The notes: generated by a model from the letters alone, not told the origin. 20,000 nt of DNA from an uncultured virus (IMG/VR IMGVR_UViG_2775506815_000003) (IMGVR_UViG_2775506815_000003:55251-75250), one strand, 5' to 3'; positions 1-19,187 are shown, numbered from the stretch's first letter. Translations and numbers: made by a program.

Positions 1-909
1 GCTTATAGCGTGATACACGCTGTAAGTGAAGATTTAAATTTAAAAGATATCACTAAGATAGATATAGGATGTCTACCTTATTGTGATTTGATAACCCATG
101 GATCGCCTTGTCAAGATTTCTCTGTATCGGGAGAAAATAAAGGTGGAGATGAGGGAAGTAATACAAGATCAAGTTTAATGTGGAATACTGTAAGCATAGT
201 AAAACACATTAGACCTCGATATGTGGTGTGGGAGAATGTAAAAAATGTACTATCTAAGACACATGAACATAATTTTGATAAATATATTAATACTCTTAGA
301 AAACTAGGCTATAACAATTATTATAAAGTATTAAATGCTAAAGATTTTAACATACCCCAAAATAGGGAACGTATATTTGTAGTGTCTGTTCGGAATGATG
401 TTAAGATATCAGATACTTGGATAGAAGATATAAATACTAAGGAACTGAGTATGTGCTTAAAAGATATAATAGAACCTATAGAAATGGTTCCAGAAAAATA
501 TTATTTAAGTGAGAGTGTAACTAGTAAGTTAATATATAGACAAAATACTACGGCCAAGAGTGGAATTACAATAGTAGGAGATTTAAATAATAGTGAACTA
601 AAAATGAATAAACGCATATTTTCAACATTAGGCATATGTTCTACTATCCTTACCACTAATCCACCTAAAATATATATAGAAACTCCTACTGATACTGGAT
701 ATAAAATCAGAAAGCTAATGCCAGTAGAGTGTTGGCGGTTGATGGGTTTCAGTGATAAGGATTATTGGAGGGTAAAGGAGACACTAGAGAAAACATTTTA
801 TAAAGGGAAAGATAGGACAGACAGTCAAATGTATAAAATGGCAGGAAATTCCATAGTGGTAAATGTATTAGAGTCTATATTTAAAAGTTTATTAATAGAC
901 CAGGATTAA
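1..909 (+). CDS. DNA (cytosine-5)-methyltransferase, 5'-truncated by the window edge
   Basis: Motifs IV (GSPCQDFS), VI (ENV), VIII (QNRER) and X (GNSI) are present. Motif I is absent and the frame is open from base 1, so the start lies upstream. Confidence 0.95.
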   Translation, partial: AYSVIHAVSEDLNLKDITKIDIGCLPYCDLITHGSPCQDFSVSGENKGGDEGSNTRSSLMWNTVSIVKHIRPRYVVWENVKNVLSKTHEHNFDKYINTLRKLGYNNYYKVLNAKDFNIPQNRERIFVVSVRNDVKISDTWIEDINTKELSMCLKDIIEPIEMVPEKYYLSESVTSKLIYRQNTTAKSGITIVGDLNNSELKMNKRIFSTLGICSTILTTNPPKIYIETPTDTGYKIRKLMPVECWRLMGFSDKDYWRVKETLEKTFYKGKDRTDSQMYKMAGNSIVVNVLESIFKSLLIDQD

Positions 910-925
910 GTTCCTGGTCTTTTTT
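897..925 (+). terminator. Intrinsic terminator after the methyltransferase
   Basis: AGACCAGGA (897-905) and TCCTGGTCT (912-920) form a perfect 9-bp stem, followed by a T run. Confidence 0.85.
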
Positions 926-1098
926 ATTTTTTGCATTCTATTTAAATATTCTGAAATATATTGAGGCAATACAAGAAAAATTATCTTTACATTTAGCCTA
1001 GAACAAGCTTTTATAATAGCACTAATAGAATTCCTATAGTACCATTATATAATCGCTGCAATGGCCTATAAAAGCCTAATATGAGGAAAATGCTCTAT

Positions 1099-1584
1099 TT
1101 AAAAGATATTTTTATAAATTTCATAAAAATGAGAAGAATCATCTAATAAATGACGAATATTTTTGTAATTTTGCCTTGCCGGAGGAGATTCTTCCTTCTC
1201 CCATCTAGAAATAGTTTTTCTATGAACATTTAATAAATCTCCTAATTTCTTTTGGGTTAAATTCAAATTCATTCTTATACTTATAATTTTATTACCATAA
1301 TCACTACTAATAAAATTAAAATAATCATCATATACAATTGAAGGTTTTACTTTAAGGGCTATACAAATTTTATTTATAATATCTATAGAATGCTCTACTA
1401 AATTATTTTCATATCTAATTATAGTAGCTCTATCTAAATTGGATTTAGTGGCTAATTCTTCTTGAGTAAAATTATTAAGTAGTCTATAATATTTGATACG
1501 AGAGCCTATAGTAGATAAATCAGAAATACCCTTTAATAAATTTTGATTGTGATTAAATGTTTCCGTAGTGATACTATTGCCAAT
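1099..1584 (-). CDS. Tandem XRE/HTH regulator reading frame with no start codon upstream of the first HTH (not in the ORF track)
   Basis: Manual translation gives TIGSRIKYYRLLNNFTQEELATKSNLDRATIIRYENN...GNKIISIRMNLNLTQKKLGDLLNVHRKTISRWEKEE, with TAA at 1101-1099. The frame is open back to 1632 with no ATG/GTG/TTG before the internal ATG at 1272. Confidence 0.8.
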   Translation of the reverse strand: MGNSITTETFNHNQNLLKGISDLSTIGSRIKYYRLLNNFTQEELATKSNLDRATIIRYENNLVEHSIDIINKICIALKVKPSIVYDDYFNFISSDYGNKIISIRMNLNLTQKKLGDLLNVHRKTISRWEKEESPPARQNYKNIRHLLDDSSHFYEIYKNIF

Positions 1585-1605
1585 GAAATATTGATGACTA
1601 TAAGG
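1560..1605. other. Putative attR of an upstream sigK-intervening element (core AATGA 1582-1586)
   Basis: sigK similarity begins at AATGA in the (E)NE codons. From memory, this is the position and core of the B. subtilis skin junction. Confidence 0.7.
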
Positions 1606-1674
1606 GCTAATAAAAAATCCAAAATAGAGGTATCATTACAAGAGCCTATAGGAGTAGATAAAGAAGGCAATGAA
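1582..1674 (+). other. sigK: Internal fragment of split sporulation sigma factor SigK
   Basis: NEILMTIRANKKSKIEVSLQEPIGVDKEGNE matches SigK (ENEILM..R..KK....VSL.DPIG.DKEGNEIS), not SigE (EPLNIDWDGNE). Similarity starts and stops abruptly: SDTIA replaces ARCIE upstream and LPLTV replaces ISL.D downstream. Confidence 0.9.
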
Positions 1675-1700
1675 TTACCCTTAACGGTTTATCTATCTTC
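1650..1700. other. Putative attL of the downstream element (core AATGA 1669-1673)
   Basis: sigK similarity ends here. An inverted repeat TAGATAAA (1655-1662) / TTTATCTA (1688-1695) flanks the core, and the recombinase stop codon is about 65 bp away. Confidence 0.8.
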
Positions 1701-1739
1701 AAGGGTACATATTGAAAAATACATAAGTATAGGGTTTGT

Positions 1740-3287
1740 CTATTTAGGCAGCTTTGGAAACAAAGTTAGAGTAAATTGGTCATTTCTTTGCTCTTTTTCT
1801 TTTTCATATACGGCAGAATCTAATACAGACTTAAGTAGTTTATTTTTCCTTTCTGGATCATCAGTCTTAGGGTATAGGTCCAATACCTTTTTTACCTTAG
1901 GAATTATATTTCGTTGAGCATCAATTCTTTTTTCTTCATTTTTTATATTTTTAGAAGTATTCTCTATGTTGAATTTAGTGTCATCAATCCTTTGAGCTAA
2001 TAACTGTGACCTTTCTAAATAAGTATTTACATCATAAATTCCTCTTTCAAGTAAATCGTGTAAATTGTTTTTCTGCTTTTCTAATTCTTCTAATTCATTT
2101 TTTAGTCTGCTTAGGGAAAGTTTATGCATTCTTAAAGTATTGTTTGCTTTAGATTTATTTTCCTTGTCTTCTACATTGTCCCATTCAGCTTTATATTCTT
2201 CTAGCCATTCCTCTAGTCCTTTGAGAAGTCTTTGTTCTACAAACTTAAACTTAGAACTTTTATTGTTACAACTAGTGTTATAACAGACTATATGAGGGTC
2301 TATATTGTTGGTATATGGTCTATACACCATAGAAGAACCACATTTTGAACAAATGATAATACCAGCCAAAGGATTAGTTATTTTAGTTTTATATGGCACA
2401 TGGCTTCTCTTTTTAAGGATTTCTTGAGCTTTATCAAATATATCATTACTTATTAATGGTTCATGTTTACCTTTTACACTTATCCATTCTTCACGGGGTA
2501 AACTTTTTACTTCTTTTATTTGTTCAGGATTATCAGATTTTTTATATACTTTCTTTCTCCATTGAATCTTTCCAACATATACTTCATTCTTAATGATATT
2601 TAGGACCAAGTGACTGGACCAGTTTTTTCCCGTGTATGTTTTATACCCTAGCTCGTTCAATTTATTAGCAATTTTACCGCCGCCCATGTTGTGGTTTGCA
2701 TATAAATCAAATATCATTTTAACAATAGGTGCTTGTTCTGGATGTGGAGTTAGAGTTCTGGTTTTCCCTTCACAGACGATTTCATATCCAAAGGGAGGTA
2801 ATGGTCCTAAAAAGTTTCCATCTTCTATAGAACGAACTCTGCCACGTTGTAAACGTCTATTTATTATTTTTAATTCCTTCCTAGCCATAAAAGCTTCAAA
2901 CTCAGAATATTCTTCGTCAAATTCATCTTGAAGGTCATAAGTTTTTCTAGGAGTAATAATTTTTGTGTTAGATTCTTTGAAAGTTTCTAGTATTAAACCT
3001 TGCTCCTGCATATTGCCACGACCTAATCTATCCATGTCCATTACTAGAACTGCATCGTATTCTTTATTCTTGACTTCTTTTAGTAATTCAAGCATTTCAG
3101 GTCTATGAACTAAACTCTCCCCAGAAACTATTTCTTCACGAATCCTTAATATATTAAGGCCTTTCTCCTTGGCCACTTTAAGCAATATTTTTTTATGTTT
3201 AGCTAAAGTTTCACCTTCACCATACTTTTCAGCTTCTTCATCAGCCCTAGACTTACGAAGATACATGCAAATACGATCCATAGTCAT
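1740..3287 (-). CDS. Large serine recombinase (SpoIVCA/CisA-like integrase)
   Basis: Catalytic YLRKS and DRLGR motifs, PFGY recombinase domain, zinc ribbon LAGIIICSKCG...CYNTSC, and a coiled coil. RBS GAGGTG. Uninterrupted 515 aa. Confidence 0.95.
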   Translation of the reverse strand: MTMDRICMYLRKSRADEEAEKYGEGETLAKHKKILLKVAKEKGLNILRIREEIVSGESLVHRPEMLELLKEVKNKEYDAVLVMDMDRLGRGNMQEQGLILETFKESNTKIITPRKTYDLQDEFDEEYSEFEAFMARKELKIINRRLQRGRVRSIEDGNFLGPLPPFGYEIVCEGKTRTLTPHPEQAPIVKMIFDLYANHNMGGGKIANKLNELGYKTYTGKNWSSHLVLNIIKNEVYVGKIQWRKKVYKKSDNPEQIKEVKSLPREEWISVKGKHEPLISNDIFDKAQEILKKRSHVPYKTKITNPLAGIIICSKCGSSMVYRPYTNNIDPHIVCYNTSCNNKSSKFKFVEQRLLKGLEEWLEEYKAEWDNVEDKENKSKANNTLRMHKLSLSRLKNELEELEKQKNNLHDLLERGIYDVNTYLERSQLLAQRIDDTKFNIENTSKNIKNEEKRIDAQRNIIPKVKKVLDLYPKTDDPERKNKLLKSVLDSAVYEKEKEQRNDQFTLTLFPKLPK

Positions 3288-3481
3288 AAAATCACCTCAT
3301 TGGTATTTATATGTTTATTATATTGGAATATTGGGGAAAAGGAAAGTAGTTTAGTTGAAGTTATGTGGAATAGGCCTACAATAAGTGAAATATATGTTCT
3401 TTTGTTATTATGGCGTATTTAAATTAAAATGTAGAAATAAATAAAATAATTTACTTTTAACTATGAAATAATATTTTTTAA

Positions 3482-3510
3482 GAATAAAGTTCCTTTTGAG
3501 TACATAATAT
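3482..3510 (+). promoter_or_regulatory. Possible SigE-type sporulation promoter
   Basis: GAATAAA-14 bp-CATAATAT, upstream of the RBS (GGAGG) and ATG at 3544. Confidence 0.4.
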
Positions 3511-3543
3511 TATATAATGATCATGACAAGGAGGGATAATAAA

Positions 3544-4107
3544 ATGAAAGAGCTTATTTGTACAACTTTATTGACAATAATTACCTATACCGCTACGCAG
3601 TTTTTCTCCATAAATAATTCAGCTTTGGAAGCGTTGGTAAATTCAATCCAGTTGTTATCCCAATCTTTTTTATGTGGGTAAGAGTTCCTAAAAATTATCT
3701 AAAAGTTATGTGTTTTAAAAGCGTAAATATAAAATATCTAATAAATATTAAATTAGATGATTGCAAAATCTCTGATACTCATTTTTACTCATTTTAGAGA
3801 AATTAGGCAGGATTTATTGATGTTAGATCAAACAAATGATAGTAGAATACTCAAACAGAATTTTGGAGATATAATGTATTTGTCTACTATTGAAGTAAAT
3901 AATGGAATAATTGATTTGTCATATTATATTGATGAGGGAAGCTTAATTATTCAATCTAAAAATAGAGTTAAATATAAGGTATTCTTTAGAATATCCGAAG
4001 ACCTTTTTCAAAAAGTAAATTCAGTGTTTACTGATAATAAAGGTATTTCATATAACAGTGATAGCGTGAAAAATAATTCGAAGCAAAGCAAAAATGAGTA
4101 TACTTAA
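3544..4107 (+). pseudogene. Probable frameshifted hypothetical gene with a hydrophobic N-terminus
   Basis: A strong RBS and ATG at 3544 give a short ORF (MKELICTTLLTIITY...). Overlapping open frames lead into ORF 3757-4107, which has no clear RBS. Confidence 0.35.
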
Positions 4108-4154
4108 TAAAGGCCTATAAAGGTCTCAAAAATTAAGTTTAATTTTGTTTATAG

Positions 4155-5412
4155 CTATGCCACAGAAATATCCGTATCTTTTATAATACCATTAGAGATT
4201 AATAGTTTTATAGCTTGATTAAGGGCTTTCTCTTTTTGTTTATTCATTAATTCTTGTGGCATATCAATTTTATATAGATCAGAAGGATTCCATACTTCCT
4301 CTGTTACAAACATATTATAAATAGCAGTTAGTATCATCCTCGCTATAACGATAATTGCTCTCTTTTTTCCTCTCCTTTTGTAAATGCATTCATATTTATT
4401 TTTGTAGTAAGGAGATTTGTCCGATTTAACGGCAGTATGGGCAACTTGTACCAATGCTGGTTTGAGGTAAACTCCAGCACGTGTAATTCGAACAGATTTC
4501 TTCTTACCAGCAGATTCATTGTTGCCTGGTGTTAAACCAACCCGGCAACACAAACGCTTAGAGCTGGAAAATTGAGACATACCAATACCAATCTCAGAAA
4601 TAATAGTGATAGCTGAGTCCCTTTTGACCCCGGGAATGGTACATAAAATATTTACATGATTTTCATAGGGCATAATCATCTTATTTAAATTTTCATCAAT
4701 CTCTGCAATTGATGAAGTGACATAATTAAGATGTGATCTAACCATTAATATGCGTTCTTTTTGTTCTTGTGTCATTTGGTAACCTTCAATAGATTCAATT
4801 ACTAGATCTGCTTTTTTCTTTAAGCTTTTTTGTAAAAGTGAAGTACAATAGTCTGGGTTAAATGAATCTGAAGAAATTAGATAGTCTGTGATGGAAGTGG
4901 CAGATTTGCCAAACATGTCGGAAACGACAGCATCAAAGGCTACATTACCAACAGTGAAAGCATTTTGAAATCTATTTTTTTCACTACTTCTACAAGAAAC
5001 AAGTTTTGAACGATGACGAGTATATTCACGAAGAATACTAATTGGCTTACTGGGGATATAAACTTCCAGATACTAAACCTAAACGAAACAGATCACCAAT
5101 CCATTTAGAATCTTTGACATCATCCTTATTACCTTTTATTGCTTTAACCCATTTAGGGTTAGCAATGGTTACGTTGATAGTGTCCTCTAAAATGTTAAAA
5201 ACAGGTATCCAATACTTTCCTGTAGATTCCATGTATACATCATAGCAGTTGTTATCAATAAGCCATTGCTTAAATTGTAAGATGGAATTATTAAAAGTAG
5301 AGAATCTCTTTTTTGAATAATGTGGGGTAATCCCCTGTGAAATGATGATTGTGGCAACGAGAAAAGTTTTATGCACATCGACACCACAACAAATAGGATA
5401 AACAACTTTCAT
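4155..5412 (-). pseudogene. IS110-family transposase, frameshifted near 5060
   Basis: DEDD-domain motifs GVDVHK, MESTG and KDDVKD; C-terminal TIPGV...EIG and ESAGK. The second frame continues YIPSKPISILREYTRHR into ORF 4155-4916. Confidence 0.92.
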
Positions 5413-5533
5413 AGCACAGCCTCCTTTTAAGATAATGAGGAGAAGACATTGACTGAATCGTCACACATATAACTATTAGCTAAAGCAATGATTAGCGTGC
5501 GGACTTTTAGTACCAATTATTTGTGCTTGAAAG

Positions 5534-6210
5534 ATGGTTCTTATTAATAGTGATAAAAGTGAGCAAAAAGATTTCCAATATGATTTATTTCCGGCGCTAA
5601 AGAAGAGCTTGACACAATTAAATAAGGATAGGAAAATAGATTTAATTCTCTTATCTGGCGATTTAATTGATAAGAGAGGAAGGGGATTTGAAAATATAGA
5701 TGTAGCATTTAATCGATTTAGAAAAGAATTTATATTGCCTATTAGTGAAGAGTTGAATATCCCAGAGAATTTATTTATACTAACTCCAGGTAATCATGAT
5801 GTTGATCGAACTAAAATTAACCCTAATACAGATAGGGGTCTTAAAATTAACCTACAAAATACAGATGTTGTTAATAGGGAGATTGAAGAAAATAATCCTG
5901 ATAATATAAGGGGTATATTGTCATATAAAAATTTTGAAAGAGAATTTTATAAAGATAGTGATAATTCAATAATAACTGATTTTCATTCATCACACATAAT
6001 AAATATAGATGGATTGAGGTTTAGTATATCTTGTATAAACTCAGCATGGACATGTTATGAATCAGATGAAACAGATAGGCTGATTATAGGAGATAGACAA
6101 ATAAGTAATGCATATAACGAAATTAAAGATTGTGATGTTAAGATAGCTTTGATGCATCATCATTTTGATTTACTAATAAAGTTTGATAAGCGTGATGTAA
6201 AAAATAAAAT
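5534..6210 (+). pseudogene. Calcineurin-like metallophosphoesterase domain, truncated at both ends
   Basis: SGDLID, PGNHD and MHH motifs are present. The N-terminal DxH and C-terminal GHxH motifs are missing, and the frame runs into the IS3 left end at 6211. Confidence 0.85.
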
Positions 6211-6279
6211 TGGATAGGTTACACTTAATAGGACAGATCTTTACTTAACATGGTACAATAAAATCAGGAGGAGATTTTA

Positions 6280-6554
6280 ATGACCAGGAAACGTTATGAT
6301 GAAGATTTTAAAAGACAGTTAGTAAAGATCTATAACCAAGGAAATCACAGCTATAGAAGCCTTGCTGATGAATATGGTGTAGCTGCCCCTACTATCAGAA
6401 CATGGGTAATGAGATATAATAATTCCCAGTCTTTTAATATAGAAGAAAATAGAACTGAAGAAGATAGAGAATTAATAGAGCTTAGAAAGAAAGTAAAACA
6501 ACTGGAAATGGAGAATGATATCTTAAAGCAGGCAGCACTACTACTAGGCAAAAA

Positions 6555-6558
<4 letters not shown>
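6280..6558 (+). CDS. IS3 transposase OrfA (HTH)
   Basis: RKRYDEDFK...LADEYGV...TIRTWV...[11 protein letters not shown], with RBS AGGAGG. Confidence 0.92.
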
Positions 6559-7417
<859 letters not shown>

Positions 7418-7473
7418 TTTTAAATAAAATCTATGTTAAGTATGATTTTATCTAAAAAGGGGTTGCCAATCCA

Positions 7474-10400
7474 GTATTTAATCCTATTGGTTCATTAAGT
7501 ATAAATAATATTCAATCATTGTTATCAATCAATGGACATCAATTACGACTTCCTAGGATTGAAATTAAAATGAATAGCATAAGAGATCAAATAATTATAA
7601 ATAATAATAAAATTCAACTAATTAATAAAGAGTTTGCAGATTATGTTGTCAGCTATTATTTTAGCAAAAAAGATGTCAAAGAATTTATAAAATGTATTTT
7701 TGATTGGTTTGCACATGGCCAAGAAGTAGAGTATGCTCTAATTGGAGACTTCTTAAGATATGGTAAAAGATATGAAAAAATGAACTACATAAAAATCGAA
7801 GAGTTATTAGATAGGTTTATTAACAAAAAATATGAATTAGGAGATGCAAACTCTTTATTCAAATTAGGCATATATATTTATTATGAATATGCAGAAATGA
7901 AAAATTATGCTATTAAACTTCTTGAAAAAGCTAATGATATGAATAATTTAGATGCTAAAGCTGCATTAGGAATTTGTTATTTAGATGGAAGTAACTTAAA
8001 TGAAATTAATAAAGTAAGAGGCGAAAAATTATTAAGAGAAGTAGTTGTATTAGATAACATTAAGGCTAAAGAAATATTAGGTAACATGTTAATTAAAGGA
8101 AATATAATAAAGAGGAATGAGATTGAAGGGGAGAAGCTTTTAGAAGAAGCTACTCTAAAAGGGAGTAATTTTGCTAAATATACATTAGCTGTGAGAACAT
8201 TATTTGGGTATGGTATAAAAGCTGATTCAGACAAAGGAAAGAAATCACTTTATGAATTAATAGAGGAAAATGATACTAAAGCAATGATTGCACTTGGGGA
8301 AGCGCTAATAGACGGAATTGGTAGTAGTTTTAATGTAGACGAAGGAATAAAGTTATTGAATAATGCCATTGATCTAGGAAATAATAGAGCAAAATTATAT
8401 TTAGCATGTAGATTTGTTTTAGGTGAAGGAGTAGAGCAAGATTGTAGAAAAGGAATAAGAATGGTTGAAGAACTAGCTGAAAAGGGAGAGACAGATGCTA
8501 AACTTTATCTAGCGAATTATTAATTAAAGGAAGATATGTAGATAAAAACGTTGAAAAAGGCTTAGATATATTAAAAAAATTGATGAGAGGTAATAATACA
8601 GATGCTATCATTGTATACTCTAAATTACTTATAGAAGGAAAAGGGATTAATCAGGACATTAATGAAGGAATTAAGTTATTAGAAGATCTAGTAGAGAAAG
8701 ATAATTTAGATGCTATCCATGAATTAGGCAAGTTATTAATAGATGATGAATTTGTCAATAAAAATCCTGAAAGAGGAATAGATTTACTTGAACAAGCTTA
8801 TAGAAAAGGGAATATGGATTCAGGTAGATTGTTAGCTTTTTTCTTAATTAGTGATAGTAATAATTTATACAAAAATAAAGTAAAAGGGAAGAGTATAATA
8901 AATAAGCTAATTGAACAAGGAGATAAAGAGACAAAAACAAGATATGGTATTAGACTTTTAAATATAGGTAAAGAAAAGGAGCTAGGAATTAAGTTGCTAG
9001 AGGATGCTGTAAGTGAAGGAGATTCAAATGCTAAAACTATATTAGCTGACGAGTTAGTGACAGGTAGAACTATAACTCGAGATATAATTAGAGATAGAGA
9101 GCTTTTTGATGAAGCAATTAAATCTGGAAATGTTATTGCATTCAGGATTTTGGGCTATAGGCTTTTGTTTAATGATAGTTTGAAACGAAACTCTAATTAT
9201 GGTTGTAAGCTTTTATTAAGGGGCATAGAACGTGGGGACTCTATGGCTAAAGTCATATTAGGTCATGGCATACTTTTAGGATATGCTGAAAATTATAAAT
9301 TAGAAGAAGGCATAAGATTATTAGAAGAAGCATCATCAGAAGAACTAATTGCATACACTATTTTAGGAGAGTTTCTTGTTAAAGGGATATATATAAGTCA
9401 AAATAAGATTAAAGGAGAGAAATTATTAAACTATGCTTCTGAAAAAGGTAATATTAATGCTACAATGTTACTTATCAAAATGTTATTAGATGGTGAATAT
9501 TTAAAGCAGGATAAAATAAAAGGAGAACAATTGTTGATAGAAGCAGTGGATAAAGGGGAGTGTCAGGCTAAAATCGAATTAGCAAATAGAATAATAAGTG
9601 AAAAAAATTATGAAAAAAATCTCAAAAGAGGTATTGAAATTTTTGAGGAATTAGTTGGAGAGAAAAACAGTGAAGCTATGTTAGAATATGGGAATATGCT
9701 TGTTGAAGGAAGAGATAAAGATATAGATAAGGGAGTAGATATGCTAAGATTAGCAATAAAAAATGGAAGTGCTGAAGCAATGTATGATTTAGGTAATAGA
9801 TTGATTTTTGGAATAGATATTGCTCAAGATAAGAAAAAAGGCTTCGAACTTCTTAAGAAATCAAGTAATGCAGGTAATAAATATGCTAAATTAAATATAG
9901 CAGAAGTTTTAATTAATGGAGAAGTAACTGAAAAAAATACTGATGAAGGACTAAAGTTATTAAATGAATTAATAAACGATGGTTTTAAAGATGCAAGAAG
10001 ACAACTAGCATTTAGATTAATTAAGGGTGATAGAATACCTAAAAATATAGAAAAGGGAAAACAACTTATTGAAGGTCTAATACATGAAGATGATATAAAG
10101 ACTATTATTAAATATGGAGAAATTTTATTAGATGGAGTTTATCTAGAGAAAGATGTAGTAAGAGGGCAAAAATTATTGGAGTTTGCTGAAATGGAGGACT
10201 CCTTTGATGTATCCTATTATATTAGGGAAAAGATATATTAAAGGGGACGGGTTGAAGAAGCATAAATCTAAAGGAACAAAAAAATTTAAGAAGGCAATAG
10301 ATGTGGGAAACATATTAGCAAAATTTGAATATGGTATAAGAATGAAATATGGTATTGATATCCCTAAAAATGTTAAAAAGGGAGAGCAATATATCAAAGA

Positions 10401-10962
10401 AGCTCTATACCAACGAGATAGTAGCAATAAATATGACTTTGGAGTTGTTGCCTATAAACTTAAGGATTATAAAATAGCAGCAGAATTGTTTTATGATGCG
10501 TATAAAAATAACATAAAAATAGCAGGAGTTTCTTTGGCATACATGTCAAGAAGAGATGAGATTAAGGATAAGAAAAGTATTCCAGGTGTTAAAGAACTAT
10601 TACAACCAGAATTAGATGATAATGCTCCTAATGCAAAAATTAATTTGGCTTTGAGTTTAGTTAAAAAGTTTAGTAATAATCAAAATTGGAAAGAAGCTGA
10701 TAAAGTTTTTAGTACCCTAGATTCTTGTGTTTCAGAAATTGAATGGTGGTATGATTATTCTCTACAAGGAGATTATGAAGGAGACTTAGTTCTAGGATGG
10801 ATGGGTAGACATGACTTGATTGATAATTATGATAACATATCTTTTAGTGAACGATTGGATAGAGCGAAGAAAAACGGGTGGGACATTCCAAAATGGATGT
10901 TTCAAAAAAGTCATGGCGAGTGTTTTAAAGCTATGTCTCAGACGGCAGTAAGCAAGGAGTAG
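7474..10962 (+). pseudogene. Large Sel1-like repeat protein split by two frameshifts; N-terminus lost at the IS3 end
   Basis: About 36-aa Sel1 repeats (A...LG..L..G.G...D...G..LL..A...G) run through ORFs 7519-8523, 8580-10241 and 10183-10962. Frame changes occur near 8521 and 10220, and the frame is open back to 7474. Confidence 0.85.
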
Positions 10963-10996
10963 TAATAAAATAGTAAAACCAAATATCTTGAAATTC

Positions 10997-11030
10997 AATC
11001 GGTGTGATTAACTTGGCACCGATTTTTTAT
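10997..11030 (+). terminator. Intrinsic terminator
   Basis: AATCGGTG (10997-11004) and CACCGATT (11017-11024) stem followed by a T run. Confidence 0.8.
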
Positions 11031-11457
11031 TATCTAAAGAACAATATTTGTGGATAAAAAGTTTATATGAATTGACAGTATTAATCCAAAAATATAATAT
11101 AGTCAAAATATAAAATTTTATTGCCTAAAGTCAAAAAAATGGCTTATCTTCGATACTTAGGACGATATGATATTATATTTATAATTTAAGAGAATGTTGA
11201 ACTTGATTTTAAAGATAAAATATTTATTATTAAGTTTTCGTAACAATATATAAAATGGTAGATGTGTATTCCAAGCTATTATTAACAATGATATTTATAT
11301 ATATTTAAGCAATATACTATATATATTGTATTTTCTCCCAAAAATAGTACAATGGAAAACCGTCATTTTAATTCGTTTATGATAAAATTGTATTATAAAT
11401 ATAATTTCAAAATATTAAATGCAAATGATTACTAAGGAAATAAAAAGGCAATATTTA

Positions 11458-11505
11458 TTGCATATAGAACAAATGTTTGCTATAATGTATTTAAACATAC
11501 GTTCG
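11458..11505 (+). promoter_or_regulatory. SigA promoter overlapped by two LexA (Cheo) boxes
   Basis: TTGCAT (11458)-17 bp-TATAAT (11481) with extended -10 TG. GAACaaatGTTT (11467-11478) and AAACatacGTTC (11493-11504) each match 7/8 of GAAC-N4-GTTC. Confidence 0.8.
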
Positions 11506-11537
11506 CCACTGATTACATTATAAAGGGGGTCCTGCTA

Positions 11538-11672
11538 GTGGTGGAGGATACAAAGTACATAGAAATATTAGAACAATTTCTTGATAGATATAAAGAAGAA
11601 AACATTATAGATGTTTATGAAAAAACAGTGTTTAGAATAATGGATTATTTAGAAAAAGCAATTAACTTTTAA
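11538..11672 (+). CDS. 44-aa small protein downstream of the SOS-box promoter (not in the ORF track)
   Basis: RBS AAGGGGG at 11523 and GTG start. Sequence MVEDTKYIEILEQFLDRYKEENIIDVYEKTVFRIMDYLEKAINF. Confidence 0.7.
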   Translation: MVEDTKYIEILEQFLDRYKEENIIDVYEKTVFRIMDYLEKAINF

Positions 11673-11674
11673 TG

Positions 11675-12049
11675 TTAGTTGCTTTTGTTTATTTCATCTA
11701 TTTTTAAAGCTTTTACTATTATTTTAGCTATTTCTTCTTTTGATTTATTTCTCAAATTGAATCCTGCTTTTTCTGCCTCTTTTACAACATAGTCAATGAA
11801 ACTTTCTGACTTAGGAAATTCTTTATCAGATTTGTAATGGATAATATTATCAGTTTTTCCTAGAAGGTAGTCAAGTGAAACATCGTAGTATTCAGCTAGA
11901 AGTCTAACAGTGTCTAAATCAGGTTCGCTTATGCCTCTTTCATACCCAGATAAGGTTTTGTTATTGATACCAGTATCTTTATAGACTTGAGTTTGTGAAA
12001 CTCCTTTGTTTTCTCGTGAAATTTTTAACCTGTCGCTAATTTTCCTCAT
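11675..12049 (-). CDS. XRE-family phage repressor (ImmR/CI-like, no peptidase domain)
   Basis: HTH SQTQVYKDTGINNKTLSGYERGISEPD...VSLDYLLGKTD. RBS AGGAGG. Divergent from a Cro-like gene. Confidence 0.9.
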   Translation of the reverse strand: MRKISDRLKISRENKGVSQTQVYKDTGINNKTLSGYERGISEPDLDTVRLLAEYYDVSLDYLLGKTDNIIHYKSDKEFPKSESFIDYVVKEAEKAGFNLRNKSKEEIAKIIVKALKIDEINKSN

Positions 12050-12086
12050 TTAATTAACCTCCTAACTATATAAAATTATATACCAT

Positions 12087-12153
12087 TTCTTTAAATATAA
12101 GATAAATTTCTTAAAAACAATGAAAATACCATTGGGTTCTTAGAAAATAAGAG
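12087..12153. promoter_or_regulatory. Three 17-bp operators of switch 1 (TTCTTA-N5-TAAGAA type)
   Basis: TTCTTTAAATATAAGAT (12087), TTCTTAAAAACAATGAA (12108) and TTCTTAGAAAATAAGAG (12137). Confidence 0.7.
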
Positions 12154-12169
12154 AATGGAGGTGTAAACA

Positions 12170-12400
12170 ATGAAACAATTGCATGAAATGATAGCGGAAT
12201 ATAGAAAACCTAAAGGCATTACACAAACTTGTATTTCAGAAGTAACGGGAATAGATAATAAAAGAATTAGTAATATAGAAACAGGGAGAGTAGAACTAAA
12301 AGCCGAAGAATTCATATTAATTTGTCAAAAAGGTTTGGGAGTTAGTCCTTCTTTTTTTACAAGTAGATTCTTAGAAACTAAGAAAGATTATTCGGCATAA
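12170..12400 (+). CDS. Cro-like XRE regulator
   Basis: 76-aa HTH (ITQTCISEVTGIDNKRISNIETG), with RBS GGAGGTG. Confidence 0.85.
   Translation: MKQLHEMIAEYRKPKGITQTCISEVTGIDNKRISNIETGRVELKAEEFILICQKGLGVSPSFFTSRFLETKKDYSA
12368..12384. promoter_or_regulatory. Perfectly symmetric operator copy in the 3' end of the cro-like gene
   Basis: TTCTTAG-AAA-CTAAGAA. Confidence 0.7.
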
Positions 12401-12498
12401 TAATTATCATATATGTACAGTTTCAAAAGAAGTAAATTTTGAAGTTAGAGGAAAAGTACTTTGAAAAAAGAATACAGTGGCTGAATGCTTAATCCAGC

Positions 12499-12813
12499 CT
12501 ATTTAATATACTTTCTCTGTTTTGTAAGTTTTCTTTTAAGATGGAACATTTCTTTTTCAGTTTGGAATTCTTTGTGGGTTAGGAAGTCAAGATCATCTGA
12601 TATTTTATTTAATTTGGTATTTGTAGATACATGATTCGCAGCATTTGATCCTTCTAATTCCTGAAATTGATTTTCAAGCTTATCAAAACGAAGGAGAATC
12701 TCTTGATGATTAGAATCAACTTTAGTTTCAAGGTTATCCATTTGACTTTGCATATCGTTCATTTGAACTTGCATTTGAGTTAATAAATTAAGTATTTTTT
12801 CTTCGTTATTCAT
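12499..12813 (-). CDS. Hypothetical coiled-coil protein
   Basis: 104-aa ORF with heptad-like pattern and RBS AAGGAGTG. Confidence 0.75.
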   Translation of the reverse strand: MNNEEKILNLLTQMQVQMNDMQSQMDNLETKVDSNHQEILLRFDKLENQFQELEGSNAANHVSTNTKLNKISDDLDFLTHKEFQTEKEMFHLKRKLTKQRKYIK

Positions 12814-12842
12814 AATAACACACTCCTTATATATATTATAGA

Positions 12843-13148
12843 CTATTTTAGAGTTTTTAAGAACTCTGTAAGGATAGCAAGCTGTTTAGGAGTTAAGTTT
12901 TTAGCATTATCAAGAAGCTCTTTAAGTTCAGGCGTGATAATGGTATCGCTGGAATTGTCATCAAAAAAATTGGATAATGTCATTCCATATACATTTAATA
13001 TATTAGCTAAGGTTTCAATAGTAGGGGTGTTAGAGCCACTTTCTATGTAACTTAAAGACGATTGAGAGATGTTTGCTTTATGGGTAACCTCTTTCATTGT
13101 AAGGTTTTTGCTTTTTCTAATTAGCTTTAATTTTTCATAGTAGTTCAT
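12843..13148 (-). CDS. Second XRE-family repressor
   Basis: HTH LTMKEVTHKANISQSSLSYIESGSNTPTIETL, with RBS GAGGTG. Confidence 0.9.
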   Translation of the reverse strand: MNYYEKLKLIRKSKNLTMKEVTHKANISQSSLSYIESGSNTPTIETLANILNVYGMTLSNFFDDNSSDTIITPELKELLDNAKNLTPKQLAILTEFLKTLK

Positions 13149-13172
13149 TAGGTTTCACCTCAATATAATTGG

Positions 13173-13260
13173 TTCAGTATTCTGATTATATCATATTCTT
13201 TTACTAGAAAGTATCAAAATAATGATTAATAACATCAAGTAATATCATCATAATGATATT
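13173..13260. promoter_or_regulatory. Operators of switch 2 (ATCA-N6-TGAT)
   Basis: TTCAgtattcTGAT (13173), ATCAaaataaTGAT (13213) and AATATCAtcataaTGATATT (13241-13260). Confidence 0.6.
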
Positions 13261-13294
13261 AAGTTTATAAATTTATCAGAAAGGTGTGAGTAAC

Positions 13295-13498
13295 TTGAAG
13301 CTAGGAAAAAAAATTAAATATTGTAGAAAACAATTAAATATGTCTCAAAGAGAATTAGCTGATAAGGCTAAGGTCTGACAATCTTCTTTTCATTACATTG
13401 AAAATGATATTAATAGTCCAACCATATCAAACTTAGATAAAATAGCCAAAGCATCAGGTGTAACAGTAGCAGAGTTGTTAGATGATAAGGCAGTGTAA
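13295..13498 (+). pseudogene. Second Cro-like XRE gene with a nonsense codon (not in the ORF track)
   Basis: TTG start; MKLGKKIKYCRKQLNMSQRELADKAKV*QSSFHYIENDINSPTISNLDKIAKASGVTVAELLD. TGA at 13376-13378 sits where Ser (TCA) is expected. Confidence 0.85.
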
Positions 13499-13724
13499 GT
13501 GGTGGACAGGCCAAAGAACAAGCAAATGTAAAATCAATTATTCAACAAATAGGAAAGAAGATGAATAGTCAATACCTTAAATCTTTTATTCCTGGAAATC
13601 CCTTTAGAGATTAAAACCTATAAGAGATTAATAGGCAAGAAAGGAGATAAAAATTTAGTAGTTATGAAAATATGCGAATAGTACAAACCAGGAATTTAAT
13701 AAAAATATAAAAAGGGGTGAGTCC

Positions 13725-13955
13725 ATGAAGAAATGGAGACATGCAGCAACATATGAATATGCAGCAACATATAAAGGAGGTAAATTTGGGAATACCACAG
13801 TTAATGTTGTAGCACCACCACCTAAATCAGAAGAAGAGATAAAGAGGATACTTGAAGAATATCACCAGGCGGGATGGGACATTTGGGATTCACTTTCAAT
13901 TGAAGAACAAATTCAGATTAACAAAGAAGCTACTGCCGAATCAGGCAAAGGATAA
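13725..13955 (+). CDS. Hypothetical phage protein
   Basis: RBS AGGGGTG and a 76-aa ORF. Contains an in-frame 18-bp-period duplication of ATGCAGCAACATAT (13741, 13759). Confidence 0.7.
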   Translation: MKKWRHAATYEYAATYKGGKFGNTTVNVVAPPPKSEEEIKRILEEYHQAGWDIWDSLSIEEQIQINKEATAESGKG

Positions 13956-14023
13956 AGGACGAGGTTGTCCTTAGGTAATGAAGGAGGACATGCACTTTAA
14001 AAAGAAAGGAGGAAAAGGAAGAG

Positions 14024-14140
14024 ATGAAACAGATTAGATTGGTAGCCTTTACTTGTAAAGCTAGAGATTTATCTTCTAAATTGCAGGAAGAATTGAAGAA
14101 GTTAGAAAGGAAATTAAAACAATCTAAAAAGTTAGCTTAG
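14024..14140 (+). CDS. 38-aa basic hypothetical protein
   Basis: Purine-rich RBS upstream. Sequence MKQIRLVAFTCKARDLSSKLQEELKKLERKLKQSKKLA. Confidence 0.5.
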   Translation: MKQIRLVAFTCKARDLSSKLQEELKKLERKLKQSKKLA

Positions 14141-14183
14141 TTCTTCACTAATTAAATAATATCATGAAAAGAGGCGAATTAGA

Positions 14184-14717
14184 ATGAACTCAAACTATCT
14201 AATTGACTATCAAACACCATGTGAGAGTAAAGGATTAACTAGAAATGATGTAGTTTTACTACTATCAACAAAAGGAATAGAAATTAGCATAGAAAGTCTA
14301 GGTTGCTATGAAAGGGGAATAAGAGAACCTTCACCAGACATGGTAATAGAATTAGCTGATATATACAAAGAACTCTTTCTAACTCAGAAGTATTGTAAAT
14401 TCAACTGTGCTATAGGACAAGCTTATAGCTACGAAATATTAGATAGTATAGACCTAAAAGCTTTAAAGTTACTAGAAGAACATAGAGAGTCATATGAGGT
14501 ATTAGCAGAAACAATAATATTAATTGTAAATAAAGAAACTAAAGAAGATTTTACGGCAGATGAATTAGAAAAGCTTAAGAAAAATGTACATGAGTTGCTT
14601 GATACAGAACATACTATAGAAATTTTTAAGATAGCATTAAATAAGTTTATAGACATGAAAGAAATGATAGCAGAACATAATCAGAAATGCAGGCAAAGAG
14701 GATATGCAAGGGGGTGA
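14184..14717 (+). CDS. Phage XRE/HTH-domain protein
   Basis: ISIESLGCYERGIREPSPDMVIELADIY, followed by a YCKFNCAIG motif. Confidence 0.8.
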   Translation: MNSNYLIDYQTPCESKGLTRNDVVLLLSTKGIEISIESLGCYERGIREPSPDMVIELADIYKELFLTQKYCKFNCAIGQAYSYEILDSIDLKALKLLEEHRESYEVLAETIILIVNKETKEDFTADELEKLKKNVHELLDTEHTIEIFKIALNKFIDMKEMIAEHNQKCRQRGYARG

Positions 14718-14722
14718 AATAA

Positions 14723-15016
14723 GTGCAAGCTGATACGGTTTTTGATCTTCGATATAACATAGCAGATTTGTATATAGCAATTTTAAAGGAAGGTATAGCA
14801 ACACCAGAACAAACTTTTGTAGTTGTCTCCAATACATCAGTTATAAAAGCTACTACATGTGAAGATGTGAAAGACATGATAGGAATGAGAAATCAAGGAT
14901 TAACTTATAAAGAAATAGCTGAAATATATGGTTCAACAGATTCAAATATATATCACAGAATTAAATATAAAGAAAAAAAGACCTTTCAGCCACCAACTGA
15001 AAAGGTCAACAGTTAA
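14723..15016 (+). CDS. Small HTH DNA-binding phage protein
   Basis: MRNQGLTYKEIAEIYGSTDSNIYHRI, with RBS AGGGGGTG. Confidence 0.75.
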   Translation: MQADTVFDLRYNIADLYIAILKEGIATPEQTFVVVSNTSVIKATTCEDVKDMIGMRNQGLTYKEIAEIYGSTDSNIYHRIKYKEKKTFQPPTEKVNS

Positions 15017-15059
15017 AAAAACCATTAACTTATTATACCATATCGGAAGGAGAATTGAA

Positions 15060-15407
15060 ATGGGTAGACATAGTAGTTTTAGACTTAGATGGAGTAGATA
15101 CTATCAGTTTTTAATAGAAAGGCAAATATTCTATTTAAAACTTAAAGCATATAGGAACAAGAGCCAAGGAATGAAAGAGTGGGAAATGATTACAGAACAA
15201 ACATATAGAGACGCAATGAAGAAAAAATATCAGGATAATGTAGTAGCGGTGGAGGAAGAGATAGCACTTATGGATTCATGGCCATTAGCATTAATATTTA
15301 GTGAAGTATATGGCTTAGATGAAGATGACACAATAAGGGCAGTTGCAGAAGGTCAAGAGTCAGTTAGAGAGTTAAGAAAACATGTAAAGATTCCAGTAAA
15401 GCGTTAA
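15060..15407 (+). CDS. Hypothetical phage protein
   Basis: The ATG at 15060 follows AAGGAG, which is a better start than 14928. Confidence 0.6.
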   Translation: MGRHSSFRLRWSRYYQFLIERQIFYLKLKAYRNKSQGMKEWEMITEQTYRDAMKKKYQDNVVAVEEEIALMDSWPLALIFSEVYGLDEDDTIRAVAEGQESVRELRKHVKIPVKR

Positions 15408-15487
15408 CCAAAGCAGAGGCAAACGAAATAATAAATATGCTACAGGCTATGGAGAAATAGGAGAATGATGAAAATGATACATTTTAG

Positions 15488-16282
15488 ACTGGGGCTTTTC
15501 AGATGGATAGAGGAATTTTTCAAAATAGTATTTGGAATAACGTAGCAGAATAGAGAGTATTTTTCTACATTGTTGGGAACGCAGTTTGGAAAGAAGAAGG
15601 AACATATGTAGGAAATATTCACATTAAAAGAGGACAGTATTTAAGGTCTTATAGAAATCTAAGAGAAGATCTAATGTATATGGAAAATAATGCAGTTAAA
15701 TATTACTCAGTTTCATATATAAAAAAGGTTACAGATAAATTAGTTAGTGATGGAAGACTAGAAAAAGAGGAAACAAAGCTGGGAACACTATTTACAATCG
15801 TTAACTACAGTCATTATCAAGGGTTCAATAGATTTGAACAGGTAGACCAAGAACAGAATGAGAACGGACTGAGAACAGCGAAAGAACAGGGTACTGAGAA
15901 CGAAGAAAGAACAGGCGAAAGTCAGGGGGCTATGAACAATAAGAAGAATAAGAATAAAGAAATATATATAGATATAGTCGAGTATCTGAACCAACAAACA
16001 AATAAAAATTTCAAACACACGACTAAGTCAACTGAATCTAAGATAAACGCTAGATTAGAAGAGGAGTTCACTTTAGATGACTTTAAAAAGGTTATTGATA
16101 TAAAAACGAGTGAATGGCTCAACGACGCTAATATGCAAAAGTATCTTAGACCAGAGACTTTGTTTGGGACAAAGTTTGAAAGCTACTTAAATGAAAATAC
16201 GGAGCTGATACACAGGCAGAACCAAATAATCGGAGAAGGAGTGATAGAAGGCTATGATTTCAAAAGACGATCTAAAAATTGA
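15488..16282 (+). pseudogene. Phage replication initiator with conserved phage C-terminal domain; N-terminus cut by in-frame stops (true start uncertain)
   Basis: C-terminal IVEYLN...FTLDDFKKVID...KYLRPETLFGTKFESYLN. The same frame upstream reads GAFQMDRGIFQNSIWNNVAE*RVFFYIVGNA...KRGQYLRSYRNL, with TAG at 15551 and 15485. Confidence 0.8.
15835..15915 (+). repeat. Putative replication-origin iterons inside the initiator gene
   Basis: AGAAC at 15850, 15861, 15872, 15883, 15897 and 15908 (mostly 11-bp spacing), followed by an A-rich tract. Confidence 0.7.
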
Positions 16283-17569
16283 GTGTCAAATAATTGGTTC
16301 GTTTTTAATAGAAAGAGCTACACATGATTTTATATCACATTTAAAGGAAGATGACTTTATAGATGGCACAATCAGAGAATATTCAAGGCAATAATAAAAA
16401 TGAATACCGAACATAAAGAAATAAATATATTCACAGTGCATGAAATATCAAAAGTTCCAATATCACATTTAGCTGATATAACAAATTTGATAGCTAGTAC
16501 ATCTACCATAGAATCTAATATAAAAATATTAAAAGATAAATCTAACAGAAGAAAATTAATTCAAAAAGCTAACAAAATAGCTGAGATGGCAAAGGATAAA
16601 AATATAGACATTGAAACTATAAAAAACAATGCTGCAAAGGAAATTGATGAAATAGAAAACATCACAGATGATGGAGTAGTCACTTTGAAGGAAGCTATGT
16701 TAGAGACTGTAGGAGTCCTAGATAAAAGATATGCAAATAAAAATGACAGGAGCTACTATACGGGATTATCAAAATTAGATAATTCAACAGCTGGGTTACA
16801 TCCGGAAGAATTAACAACCATAGGAGCAAGACCAGGAGTAGGTAAAACGATAATAGGAATGCAAATAGCTCTTAACATAGCAGCAAAAAATAAAAAAGTA
16901 ATGTACACATCATTAGAGATGAGCGTTACCCAGCTATGTGAAAGAATAATATCAGCTAGAGCAAGTGTAAATGGACTAAGGCTAAGACTAGGCGACATTA
17001 AAAATGACGAAGAATGGAAAAGAATCTATAGGGTAGCAAGCCATTTCGCCATGGATAATTTCTTTATAGATAAAACTAGTAGAAATCCACAGCACATAAG
17101 AGCAAAGTTAAGGAAACATAAGCCGGATTTAATTATTATTGATTACCTACAATTACTGCAATCAACCAATAAAGAACAATCTAGAGAAAGAGAAGTAGCT
17201 ACTATAACGAGAGACCTAAAACTTATGAGTTTAGAATTCAAGATACCAATTATAATATTATCTCAGCTTAATAGAAATGCAGAAGGAAATAGACCAACTA
17301 TGGCAGATTTAAGAGAGTCAGGAGCAATTGAACAGGATTCCGATAATATATTCTTTTTACATGAACCTACAGGGAAGGAAGTGGACAAGCTAATAGAGCA
17401 GGGAATATATACACAACAGTTCATAAATCAATTAGAAAAAGAAGATAAAGCATTAAGTCAGTTGATTATAGAAAAGCAGAGAAATGGTCCTGTAGGGACA
17501 TTAGAAATAGTAAAGGTGCCAAGGCTAATGAAATTTGTTGAGATAGAAAGGAGTAACAGAAATGACTAA
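16254..17569 (+). pseudogene. DnaB-like replicative helicase, frameshifted near 16370
   Basis: GARPGVGKT, SLEM, IIDYLQL, LSQLNR, DLRESGAIEQDSD and KQRNGP motifs. The N-terminal domain starts at the RBS-preceded ATG 16254 in a different frame from ORF 16400. Confidence 0.85.
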
Positions 17570-17732
17570 GAATCCAATGGAGATTTTATATAGACACTTT
17601 GGGGAAAATCAGAGGAAGGTTAAGACATGCTAAGCGTATCTAACATATTTTATGAAATGGGACATAAGGAAGAAAAAAGTAAAGATTGTAAAGATGAAGA
17701 AATTAAAAAACTGTTTAAGGAAGTTAATTAAA

Positions 17733-17879
17733 ATGAAGCTTTGTCATAAATGTAATAGCCGAATGGTAGAAGTTAAGTTAATAGATTTAGAAGGCAAGAC
17801 ATATAAGGCCTTAGTATGTACTTATTGTGGACATACCTATAGCAGAGATAAAGCTTTCAATATGGGTAACTTTTTATGA
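17733..17879 (+). CDS. Small zinc-ribbon protein
   Basis: CHKC...CTYC in MKLCHKCNSRMVEVKLIDLEGKTYKALVCTYCGHTY. Confidence 0.55.
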   Translation: MKLCHKCNSRMVEVKLIDLEGKTYKALVCTYCGHTYSRDKAFNMGNFL

Positions 17880-18114
17880 TATAAAAGATTATGGTTTATC
17901 AATCGCAGAAATTAATGAAATAGCAGTTACAAAGCAGTTTAGAAAATCTGGAATTGGTACATATGCTATAGAATATTCAGAGAAAACTGCTAAAATAAGA
18001 GGTGCAAATATTTTTCGTTCAGGTACAGGCTATGGAAATATCCCATCGAAAGAAATTCATGAACACTGTGGATTTAAGCCATATAGGATTGAATATGAAA
18101 AGATATTAGATTGA
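17860..18114 (+). pseudogene. GNAT acetyltransferase C-terminal half
   Basis: Acetyl-CoA motif IAVTKQFRKSGIGT and N.PS......CGF. No N-terminal half and no RBS. Confidence 0.65.
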
Positions 18115-18177
18115 TTAAATTATCTCATAATATCTATATTAAACATCATGTTTGTTAAAACTAAGAATTCTATTGAG

Positions 18178-18216
18178 ATACCGTATTATTCAGAAGTGAG
18201 TTTTACGGTATTTTTA
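18178..18216 (+). terminator. Probable intrinsic terminator
   Basis: ATACCGTA (18178-18185) and TACGGTAT (18204-18211) followed by a T run. The loop is long. Confidence 0.55.
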
Positions 18217-18245
18217 TATTGTAATGAAATTTAGGAGGAATAGCT

Positions 18246-18437
18246 ATGGAGATACAAAAGCAGTATAATCAATCAAAGAAACAAAATTTAAAAAGTGAGA
18301 TGATAGGTCACATAGACGATATATTAGATGTAGCAGAGGGTATAAAAAGCCTTGATTTCTTCACTATAGAAATTAAGGTTCACAATGGGGAATTAAATGC
18401 TAATTGCACTTTAAAGAATAAGAAGAAGGTGTACTAG
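18246..18437 (+). CDS. Hypothetical phage protein
   Basis: RBS AGGAGG and a 63-aa ORF that overlaps the next start by one base. Confidence 0.75.
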   Translation: MEIQKQYNQSKKQNLKSEMIGHIDDILDVAEGIKSLDFFTIEIKVHNGELNANCTLKNKKKVY

Positions 18438-19120: not shown

Positions 19121-19147
19121 ATAAGTCTTACTGTACCTAGACAGCGG

Positions 19148-19187
19148 ACACCAAGATTACTTAATTGTAGTTGAAGTGTCTTTTTTA
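19148..19187 (+). terminator. Possible intrinsic terminator
   Basis: GACAC...GTGTC imperfect hairpin followed by TTTTTT. Confidence 0.45.

Follow-up and report, generated by a model that had tools for sequence, protein, structure and literature searches.

We analyzed a stretch of 20,000 nucleotides (the window) from an uncultured virus (IMG/VR IMGVR_UViG_2775506815_000003:55251-75250), which corresponds to positions 434214-454213 of contig C14 in genome G000, and found that sigK, the gene for the late sporulation sigma factor SigK, lies in three pieces in this genome. We consider it probable, at about 0.75, that two mobile elements interrupt the gene, that each brings a recombination unit of its own, and that two precise excisions are needed to restore it. 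An original prediction, made from the window alone, had described 31 intact SigK codons flanked on both sides by DNA unrelated to sigK, and had proposed that two insertion sites are occupied at once. The first statement was borne out by translation, by the SigK profile TIGR02846 and by boundary contigs from two public sequencing runs; the second agrees with three collinear pieces found by the same profile.

The middle piece, termed here the micro-exon, occupies window positions 1582-1674 (+ strand), with 90 nt between the two predicted crossovers. It translates as NEILMTIRANKKSKIEVSLQEPIGVDKEGNE, 31 codons running from N to E, and unrelated sequence adjoins the frame at either side. The other pieces were sought by searching the whole genome with TIGR02846 (NCBIfam; cut-off 298.65 bits). 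Three collinear, non-overlapping matches in gene order were found, all on the + strand of contig C14: a 5′ piece at C14:378641-378946 (profile positions 14-115), the micro-exon at C14:435780-435917 (approximately window 1567-1704; profile positions 106-151) and a 3′ piece at C14:462414-462683 (profile positions 138-226). Their translations read ...TYAARCIEN, then NEILM...KEGNE, and finally (GNE)ISLLDILG... to the stop codon, with foreign sequence at each break. The upstream piece ending in ...ARCIEN and the downstream piece beginning (GNE)ISLLD had both been predicted, as had the lack of an intact gene. Indeed, no sigK copy above the TIGR02846 cut-off was found anywhere in the genome; the sole full-length match (325443-326072) scored only 259 bits and is followed by another sigma factor gene, the two together looking like a sigE-sigG pair. 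Both elements are inserted inside the sigK frame and hold its pieces apart, as do the developmentally excised skin elements, a textbook case in which mobile DNA serves as a genetic switch.

Site 1 falls within ...ARCIEN/EILM... and site 2 within ...DKEGNE/ISLL..., with the crossovers 90 nt apart. The left and right attachment sites read GAAAATG / CTATAGTCACATTGCGGAAACATTT (attL1) and AAATGTTTCCGTAGTGATACTATTGCC / AATGAAATATTG (attR1) for element 1, and GGCAATGAA / TTACCCTTAACGGTTTATCTATCT (attL2) and ACGTAGATAAAGATGTAAGGGT / AATGAAATATCA (attR2) for element 2; AATG is common to the first pair and AATGAA to the second. The element-side arm of attR1, which is the right terminal inverted repeat of element 1 (window 1552-1581), equals the reverse complement of the left arm (C14:378934-378963) at 21 of 30 bases. 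That of attL2, the left terminal inverted repeat of element 2 (window 1674-1703), equals the reverse complement of the right arm near C14:462393-462422 at 19 of 30, and the first 10 bases of the terminal arms of element 2 are identical. In contrast, the host-side arms match at merely 11/30 (site 1) and 9/30 (site 2). Both elements are therefore bounded by imperfect terminal inverted repeats around a short shared core, as expected of a skin-type element; in two reports, the skin of Bacillus subtilis is described with short cores within imperfect inverted repeats of ~21 bp (PMC5025042, PMC4191935). The symmetry centers of the reconstructed phage sites attP1 and attP2 lie inside the shared cores and place the predicted crossover dinucleotides at AA for site 1 (window 1582-1583, +; within the AATG core) and at GA for site 2 (window 1672-1673, +; the center of TAAGGGTAAT-GA-ATTACCCTTA). 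Such a pattern would be expected from a serine integrase that crosses over at 2 bp.

The heptamer CAATGAA had been noted at both boundaries, and it does occur there (1581-1587 and 1668-1674), since each of the crossover cores covers Asn-Glu codons. Its reading as a significant repeat or target-site duplication was rejected: the window holds 9 copies vs. 4.7 expected, an unremarkable count that was reached in 9 of 200 shuffles, and the two cores differ. A longer word, the 10-mer AATGAAATAT, is also common to both sites (window 1582-1591, codons for ENEI; C14:462420-462429, codons for GNEI). Chance agreement of Asn-Glu-Ile codons, the genome being rich in A and T, could account for it, or else a shared preference.

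When the two elements were deleted in silico between the predicted crossovers, the resulting frame aligned to the intact SigK of a genome of the same genus (G001) at 202 of 226 residues (89%), with no gap at either junction and a sole gap in the N-terminal region. Precise excision, as modeled, restores the full-length sigK frame. Natural counterparts of the empty sites were seen in relatives. A Logan contig from public run X1 matches window 1582-2232 and continues upstream as ...CTTGCCACTTATGCAGCAAGATGTATAGAA, which is 5′ sigK sequence (site 1 empty), and one from run X2 matches window 1598-1674 and continues as ATATCATTACTCGATATATTAGGAAGCGAA, which is 3′ sigK sequence (site 2 empty). These contigs break at the very bases of the predicted boundaries, 1582 and 1674. 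Singly occupied states were found as proteins. In P0005, encoded on a Logan contig, the 5′ part and a micro-exon identical in protein to the one here are contiguous and are followed by LPLTVY..., the end of element 2; it records the element-2-only state of a near-identical SigK. P0006, a 130-aa protein of Keratinibaculum paraultunense, starts MIKCFRSDTIA-NEILM... and runs on into the 3′ part; its start agrees with the reading at the right end of element 1, and it records a state with only an element-1-type insertion. From these four sequences it follows that all four occupancy states exist. The P0005 state further suggests that element 2 is the older resident and that element 1 arrived later, in a gene that was already interrupted.

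A large serine recombinase gene stands at one edge of each element. In the whole genome, the Resolvase and Recombinase domains are each matched just twice, with one recombinase beside each left junction. The recombinase that the original prediction had placed in the right flank, along with a prophage, is Int2 (515 aa; window 1740-3287, - strand), which lies 66 nt from the micro-exon and is indeed followed by a degraded prophage. Int1 (545 aa; C14:378964-380601, - strand) is the second serine recombinase that it had expected in the upstream element; it adjoins the 5′ piece, 18 nt past the end of that piece's profile match. Both proteins are full length, carry Resolvase, Recombinase and zinc-ribbon domains (PF00239, PF07508, PF13408) and match the integrase family phrog_95 (E = 8e-111 for Int2). 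The N-terminus of Int1 reads MKIAIYSRKS, and the catalytic-type Ser13 of Int2, in a YLRKSR motif, is invariant across 18 homologues (alignment A1). The two share only 22% identity; a BLAST search of the genome with Int2 returned only Int2 itself, and Int1 was detected with Pfam profiles alone. Each gene faces away from the sigK piece upstream of it. In B. subtilis, the recombinase gene lies next to and divergent from the 5′ sigK piece, and site 1 (profile position ~115) is what we take to be the position of the B. subtilis skin.

Both recombinases have close relatives at the same sites in other genomes. Homologues of Int1 (72-83% identity) lie beside the 5′ piece at site 1 in four genomes of the same family, G004, G016, G009 and G012; the smallest of these elements measures 2.6 kb, and the gene of G012 carries one in-frame stop. 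Homologues of Int2 (74-75%) occupy site 2 in G002 and in G021, where the element is only 2.4 kb long. Among phage proteins, the integrase of Thermoanaerobacterium phage THSA-485A shares 61% identity with Int2, which groups with the integrases of PhiS63 (48%) and of the Clostridium tetani phages phiCT453A, phiCT19406A, phiCTC2A and phiCT9441A (52-53%). As a separate observation, an 83-residue Int1-type remnant (87% identical; G018:C21:81295-81543) lies ~3.6 kb upstream of an intact sigK in another member of the family and may be the scar of a lost site-1 element.

The mini-elements also point to candidate recombination directionality factors (RDFs). In the 2.4-kb element of G021, the recombinase and two small open reading frames (ORFs) of 63 and 101 aa are the sole ORFs of at least 60 aa in coding orientation. 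The 63-aa ORF has a single homologue in the whole genome studied here, ORF76 (window 13725-13955, +; 55% identity, E = 2e-12), a small acidic protein of 76 aa with homologues in 10 other site-2 elements, that is, G021 and nine more, including the fully fetched element of Wukongibacter baidiensis; for the 101-aa ORF (L016:3536-3841), no homologue was found in this genome. We regard ORF76 as a candidate RDF for Int2. At site 1, the 2.6-2.7 kb mini-elements of W. baidiensis and G012 share an ORF of 65-66 aa that is divergent from Int1, and its homologue here is ORF59 (C14:386761-386940; 59 aa, 64% identity, E = 1e-19). Neither ORF76 nor ORF59 belongs to a Pfam or PHROG family or matched the phage collection at E ≤ 0.01, and an Atlas search returned only unnamed clusters with scores of 0.83-0.89, below 0.9.

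Upstream of these ORFs, promoter-like boxes are conserved. The box AATAGTACAAACC (window 13677-13689, +) lies ~35 nt upstream of the ORF76 start, and the form (C/A)ATAGTACAA(A/C)C precedes six of eight ORF76 homologues examined; five of those six carry a CATAnnnT or ATAnnnT element 8-10 nt beyond the box, a spacing that is shifted by one here. Several ORF59 homologues are preceded by ATAG(G/T)ACAA and then CATATA. These sequences resemble what we take to be the consensus of a SpoIIID box and of the -10 element of mother-cell promoters, and AATAGTACAAACC is possibly a mother-cell promoter or SpoIIID-like box.

The distribution of split sigK genes was examined in two ways. In a neighbor sample of 41 genomes, 24 had a SigK above the cut-off, five had sigK split near profile position 115 (G004, G009, G012, G016 and G034) and others near profile positions 140-148 (G002 and G021, apparently also G005 and G024). 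Another micro-exon ORF, the 71-aa protein P0012 from a protein collection, which had no 100% match among the genome contigs, was then used as a query, and the best 80 of 493 confirmed stretches were examined, a ranking that favors flanks like those of the query. In 12 of these 80 loci a micro-exon ORF was found, with a stop-to-stop frame of just 47-87 aa and non-sigK sequence on both sides; an Int2-type gene lies directly downstream in all 12, and an Int1-type gene lies in the fetched flank of five. Whole-genome profile searches revealed three pieces and no intact sigK in nine of the 12. Two of the nine are complete chromosomes with collinear pieces, W. baidiensis (L034) and Wukongibacter sp. 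M2B1 (L036); the others are Marinisporobacter balticus (L035), Anaerosolibacter carboniphilus (L072), L047, L038, L043, L065 and L077. One piece was not found in two incomplete metagenome-assembled genomes (L054 and L079). The last locus, L063, is ambiguous: its genome (G049) has an extra fragment that covers profile positions 72-226, scores 256 bits and carries an interruption at neither site. The same metagenome-assembled genome also holds a micro-exon and a 5′ piece, suggesting mixed alleles or strains in the bin.

Comparison of 13 micro-exons in 78 pairs gave proportions of synonymous and non-synonymous differences of pS 0.81 and pN 0.094 (ratio 0.12), and in four pairs of doubly interrupted genomes all of the differences, 4-11 per pair, are synonymous. 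This fits purifying selection on the micro-exon, as for a piece that still encodes protein, and part of the divergence may predate the insertions. Two layouts were found to be non-collinear. In the complete chromosome of G054 (L080; C1:179928-181919), 1.3 kb separates the 5′ piece (- strand) from the 3′ piece (+ strand), with an ORF76 homologue between them and an Int2-type gene beyond; in L047 (G045:C65:45746-55497), the 5′ piece is oriented toward the micro-exon and 3′ piece. Judged from these arrangements, recombination would invert rather than delete DNA to rebuild sigK.

The two elements differ in content. Element 1 spans 56,863 bp, starts at C14:378934 and ends with window positions 1-1581. 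Its modules follow in order: XRE-type repressor-like regulators, RecT, replication protein O, RecU, a ParB-like protein, the small and large terminase subunits, portal, Mu F, protease, capsid-like protein, tape measure and tail proteins, holin and amidase. With all modules from lysogeny to lysis in place, it looks like a complete temperate siphovirus-type prophage. The holin and amidase genes are followed by a gene for a C5 cytosine DNA methyltransferase, whose 3′ part is window 1-909 (+; PF00145, E = 1e-60), and by a short helix-turn-helix ORF of the XRE type (57 aa; window 1099-1272, -; PF01381, E = 2e-7), and the frame upstream of the latter, to position 1600 (-), has many stops. This right end of element 1 is the mobile-type cargo that had been recognized in the left flank of the micro-exon. 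Further cargo lies between Int1 and the prophage repressor (L011:4003-7868; C14:381003-384868), including a phrog_984 protein, a PF14350 "Beta protein", a peptidoglycan-binding protein and an Mrr_cat-FtsK/SpoIIIE-FtsK_gamma fusion; it looks like a defense or accessory island. Element 2, 26,538 bp long (window 1674-20000 and on to window coordinate 28210), is a prophage remnant, degraded and skin-like. It contains fragments of the insertion sequences (ISs) IS110, IS3 and IS200, Sel1/TPR proteins, several XRE regulators, Phg_2220_C, a DnaB helicase and, near its right end, a nucleoside deoxyribosyltransferase gene; no structural or lysis genes were found among its 45 ORFs. The broken ISs (window 4155-6976 and L014:1901-7037) comprise at least three IS110 fragments, an IS3-type helix-turn-helix pair and IS200, and three single-N joins lie among them.

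Several points weigh against a doubly split, functional sigK. Excision in this organism is deduced by analogy; a search of public runs found only two that match, each with 6-7% of the sequence words, and listed no RNA run. The assignment of ORF76 and ORF59 as RDFs comes from co-occurrence only and provides leads, no more. The composite box is not enriched genome-wide (17 copies vs. 8-16 in shuffles), ATAGTACAA occurs 63 times vs. ~98 expected, and ORF76 here lacks a clean CATA -10 element. In the unbiased neighbor sample, the double interruption occurs in one of 41 genomes, this one only, and the 12 of 80 loci are not a frequency because the ranking is biased toward micro-exon-like flanks. The continuity of the element 1 prophage depends on a scaffold join, marked by a single N at C14:398304. 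A further single N lies in the 5′ piece (C14:378649), where ~50 nt are absent relative to G001, including the start codon and ~17 codons of the pro-sequence; a real deletion there would make sigK a pseudogene. Finally, element 2, full of IS fragments, may be decaying.

The last two points would be explained if the gene were dead, that is, if one or both elements could no longer excise or the 5′ end had been lost in an asporogenous strain with a decaying pseudogene. Such units do decay, as the in-frame stop in the Int1-type gene of G012 attests, and the heavy IS damage to element 2 agrees with this possibility. However, all three pieces are open and encode a protein identical to P0005 over their common part, both recombinases are full length with catalytic serine motifs, and the arms of the attachment sites are preserved. 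Both SpoIIID (149.5 bits against a cut-off of 111.5) and Spo0A (410 bits against 200) score above threshold, and the sigE-sigG-like pair is intact. The micro-exons of other doubly interrupted genomes are under strong purifying selection. The other single Ns of the contig fall at repeated IS110 sequence and seem to mark scaffold joins, and because of this, and because P0005 has a full N-terminus, we read the N at C14:378649 as an assembly gap. Taken together, a dead gene seems unlikely.

Another concern is that the assembly merged an element-1-only strain with an element-2-only strain through their common 90-nt segment. Both singly occupied alleles exist in public data of close relatives, typical reads or k-mer paths exceed the micro-exon in length, and the contig is a scaffold with single-N joins for which only the two sparse runs were found. 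Nevertheless, no N interrupts C14:398305-458885, which takes in attR1, the micro-exon, attL2 and, with Int2, the greater part of element 2. The genome, with five large contigs, is 99.18% complete with 1.27% contamination, and it holds no second sigK allele, be it intact or with the 5′ and middle or the middle and 3′ parts contiguous. Moreover, two complete chromosomes share this layout, as do other isolate genomes. Taken together, a chimera is very improbable. The original prediction had itself named, among the circumstances that would have spoken against it, that the other pieces already contain this segment, given there as 29 codons; the 31 codons would then be a leftover copy at a prophage end, with the real sigK whole or in two pieces elsewhere. 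Translations of the pieces revealed no duplicated segment: ...CIEN closes the 5′ piece and ISLL opens the 3′ piece, the genome has no other copy, and alignment to intact SigK is gap-free only when the micro-exon is included. With complementary pieces, no second copy and a gap-free join, a duplicated remnant is refuted, and we give it practically no weight.

We therefore favor a sigK gene interrupted twice, in which each recombination unit would consist of a large serine recombinase at the left junction, imperfect inverted repeats around a shared core of 4-6 bp, and a candidate RDF ORF. By analogy with skin/SpoIVCA of B. subtilis and skin/CD1231-CD1234 of Clostridioides difficile, each recombinase together with its own RDF would excise its own element as a circle in the mother cell. 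Pro-SigK would be encoded only after both elements are gone, and the forespore would retain both. Mother-cell excision and its regulation are thus extrapolated from these known systems.

Like the skin of B. subtilis (between spoIVCB and spoIIIC), the elements described here are prophage-derived, lie in sigK, carry a large serine recombinase at one edge and have cores in imperfect inverted repeats. Unlike B. subtilis, which has one element, one recombinase and one excision, this genome has a second element with an unrelated recombinase (22% identity) only 90 nt away, and element 1 looks like a complete phage, whereas the B. subtilis skin is defective. Site 2 is also known from phages. According to PMC3442830, PhiS63 is a functional siphovirus of Clostridium perfringens that integrates in the 3′ part of sigK with the attB core GTAATGAAAT; site 2 here has this very core, and its attR2 is GGGTAATGAAATATC. 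For C. tetani strains, PMC5553647 likewise describes a conserved prophage within sigK, and we infer that the phage records phiCT453A, phiCT19406A, phiCTC2A and phiCT9441A are that prophage. In these cases a single insertion is described, in contrast to the site-2 remnant without structural genes and the occupied site 1 found here. In C. difficile, the large serine recombinase CD1231 and the small acidic 72-aa RDF CD1234, controlled by sigma-E and SpoIIID, are reported as necessary and sufficient for excision of skin(Cd) in PMC5025042. ORF76 and ORF59 are likewise small ORFs; each is conserved with its recombinase lineage and stands behind a conserved box. Orientation and site differ from skin(Cd), and regulation here is a guess. 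Heterocyst-specific excision elements also interrupt nifD, fdxN and hupL in Anabaena and Nostoc. The likeness, mentioned in PMC4191935 and PMC5025042, is that developmentally excised elements interrupt genes that only a terminal cell needs, and the differences lie in the phylum, the recombinases and the developmental program. Single heterocyst genes can carry several elements.

The original prediction held that a double interruption was unknown for sigK. The full-text literature searched, with subscription journals outside its scope, yielded no report of one. In their available portions, PMC5553647, PMC5025042, PMC3442830, PMC13141910, PMC5595907, PMC6957869 and PMC4191935 describe only single sigK insertions, and bioRxiv 10.1101/2022.02.25.481979 describes 15 genomes with split sigK, each in two fragments. 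The described sigK cases have one element each; what is new here is two elements with unrelated recombinases in one gene, a layout that is nonetheless present in at least nine other genomes and so not unique to this one. It had also been likened to an "AND gate" on late sporulation, a label that may overstate the matter if one sporulation signal drives both excisions.

A broader view can be proposed tentatively, at somewhat less than even odds. It is conceivable that the doubly split sigK is a recurrent and maintained architecture, built by two lineages of large serine recombinase, one per site, 90 nt apart and with AATGAAATAT at both sites. Each would have its own RDF behind a mother-cell-type promoter box, and together they would form a two-key lock on late sporulation. 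The micro-exon would be kept by purifying selection although it stands alone between two mobile elements, a live phage may land in a sigK that is already split, and the inverted order in some genomes suggests that the gene could be rebuilt by inversion.

A piece of 31 codons is invisible to normal gene callers, so that sigK will seem absent from genomes of this kind or be taken for a pseudogene. At 2.4-2.7 kb, the mini-elements mark out the smallest recombination units, and the two candidate RDF families could serve serine-integrase tools. Two elements in one gene raise the questions of whether excision is ordered or independent, whether recombinases and RDFs cross-talk, and how a live prophage shares a gene with a domesticated remnant. 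A deletion between attL1 and attR2 would remove the micro-exon, and how this is avoided is a testable question, for which the recurrence of the layout across genera provides natural replicates.

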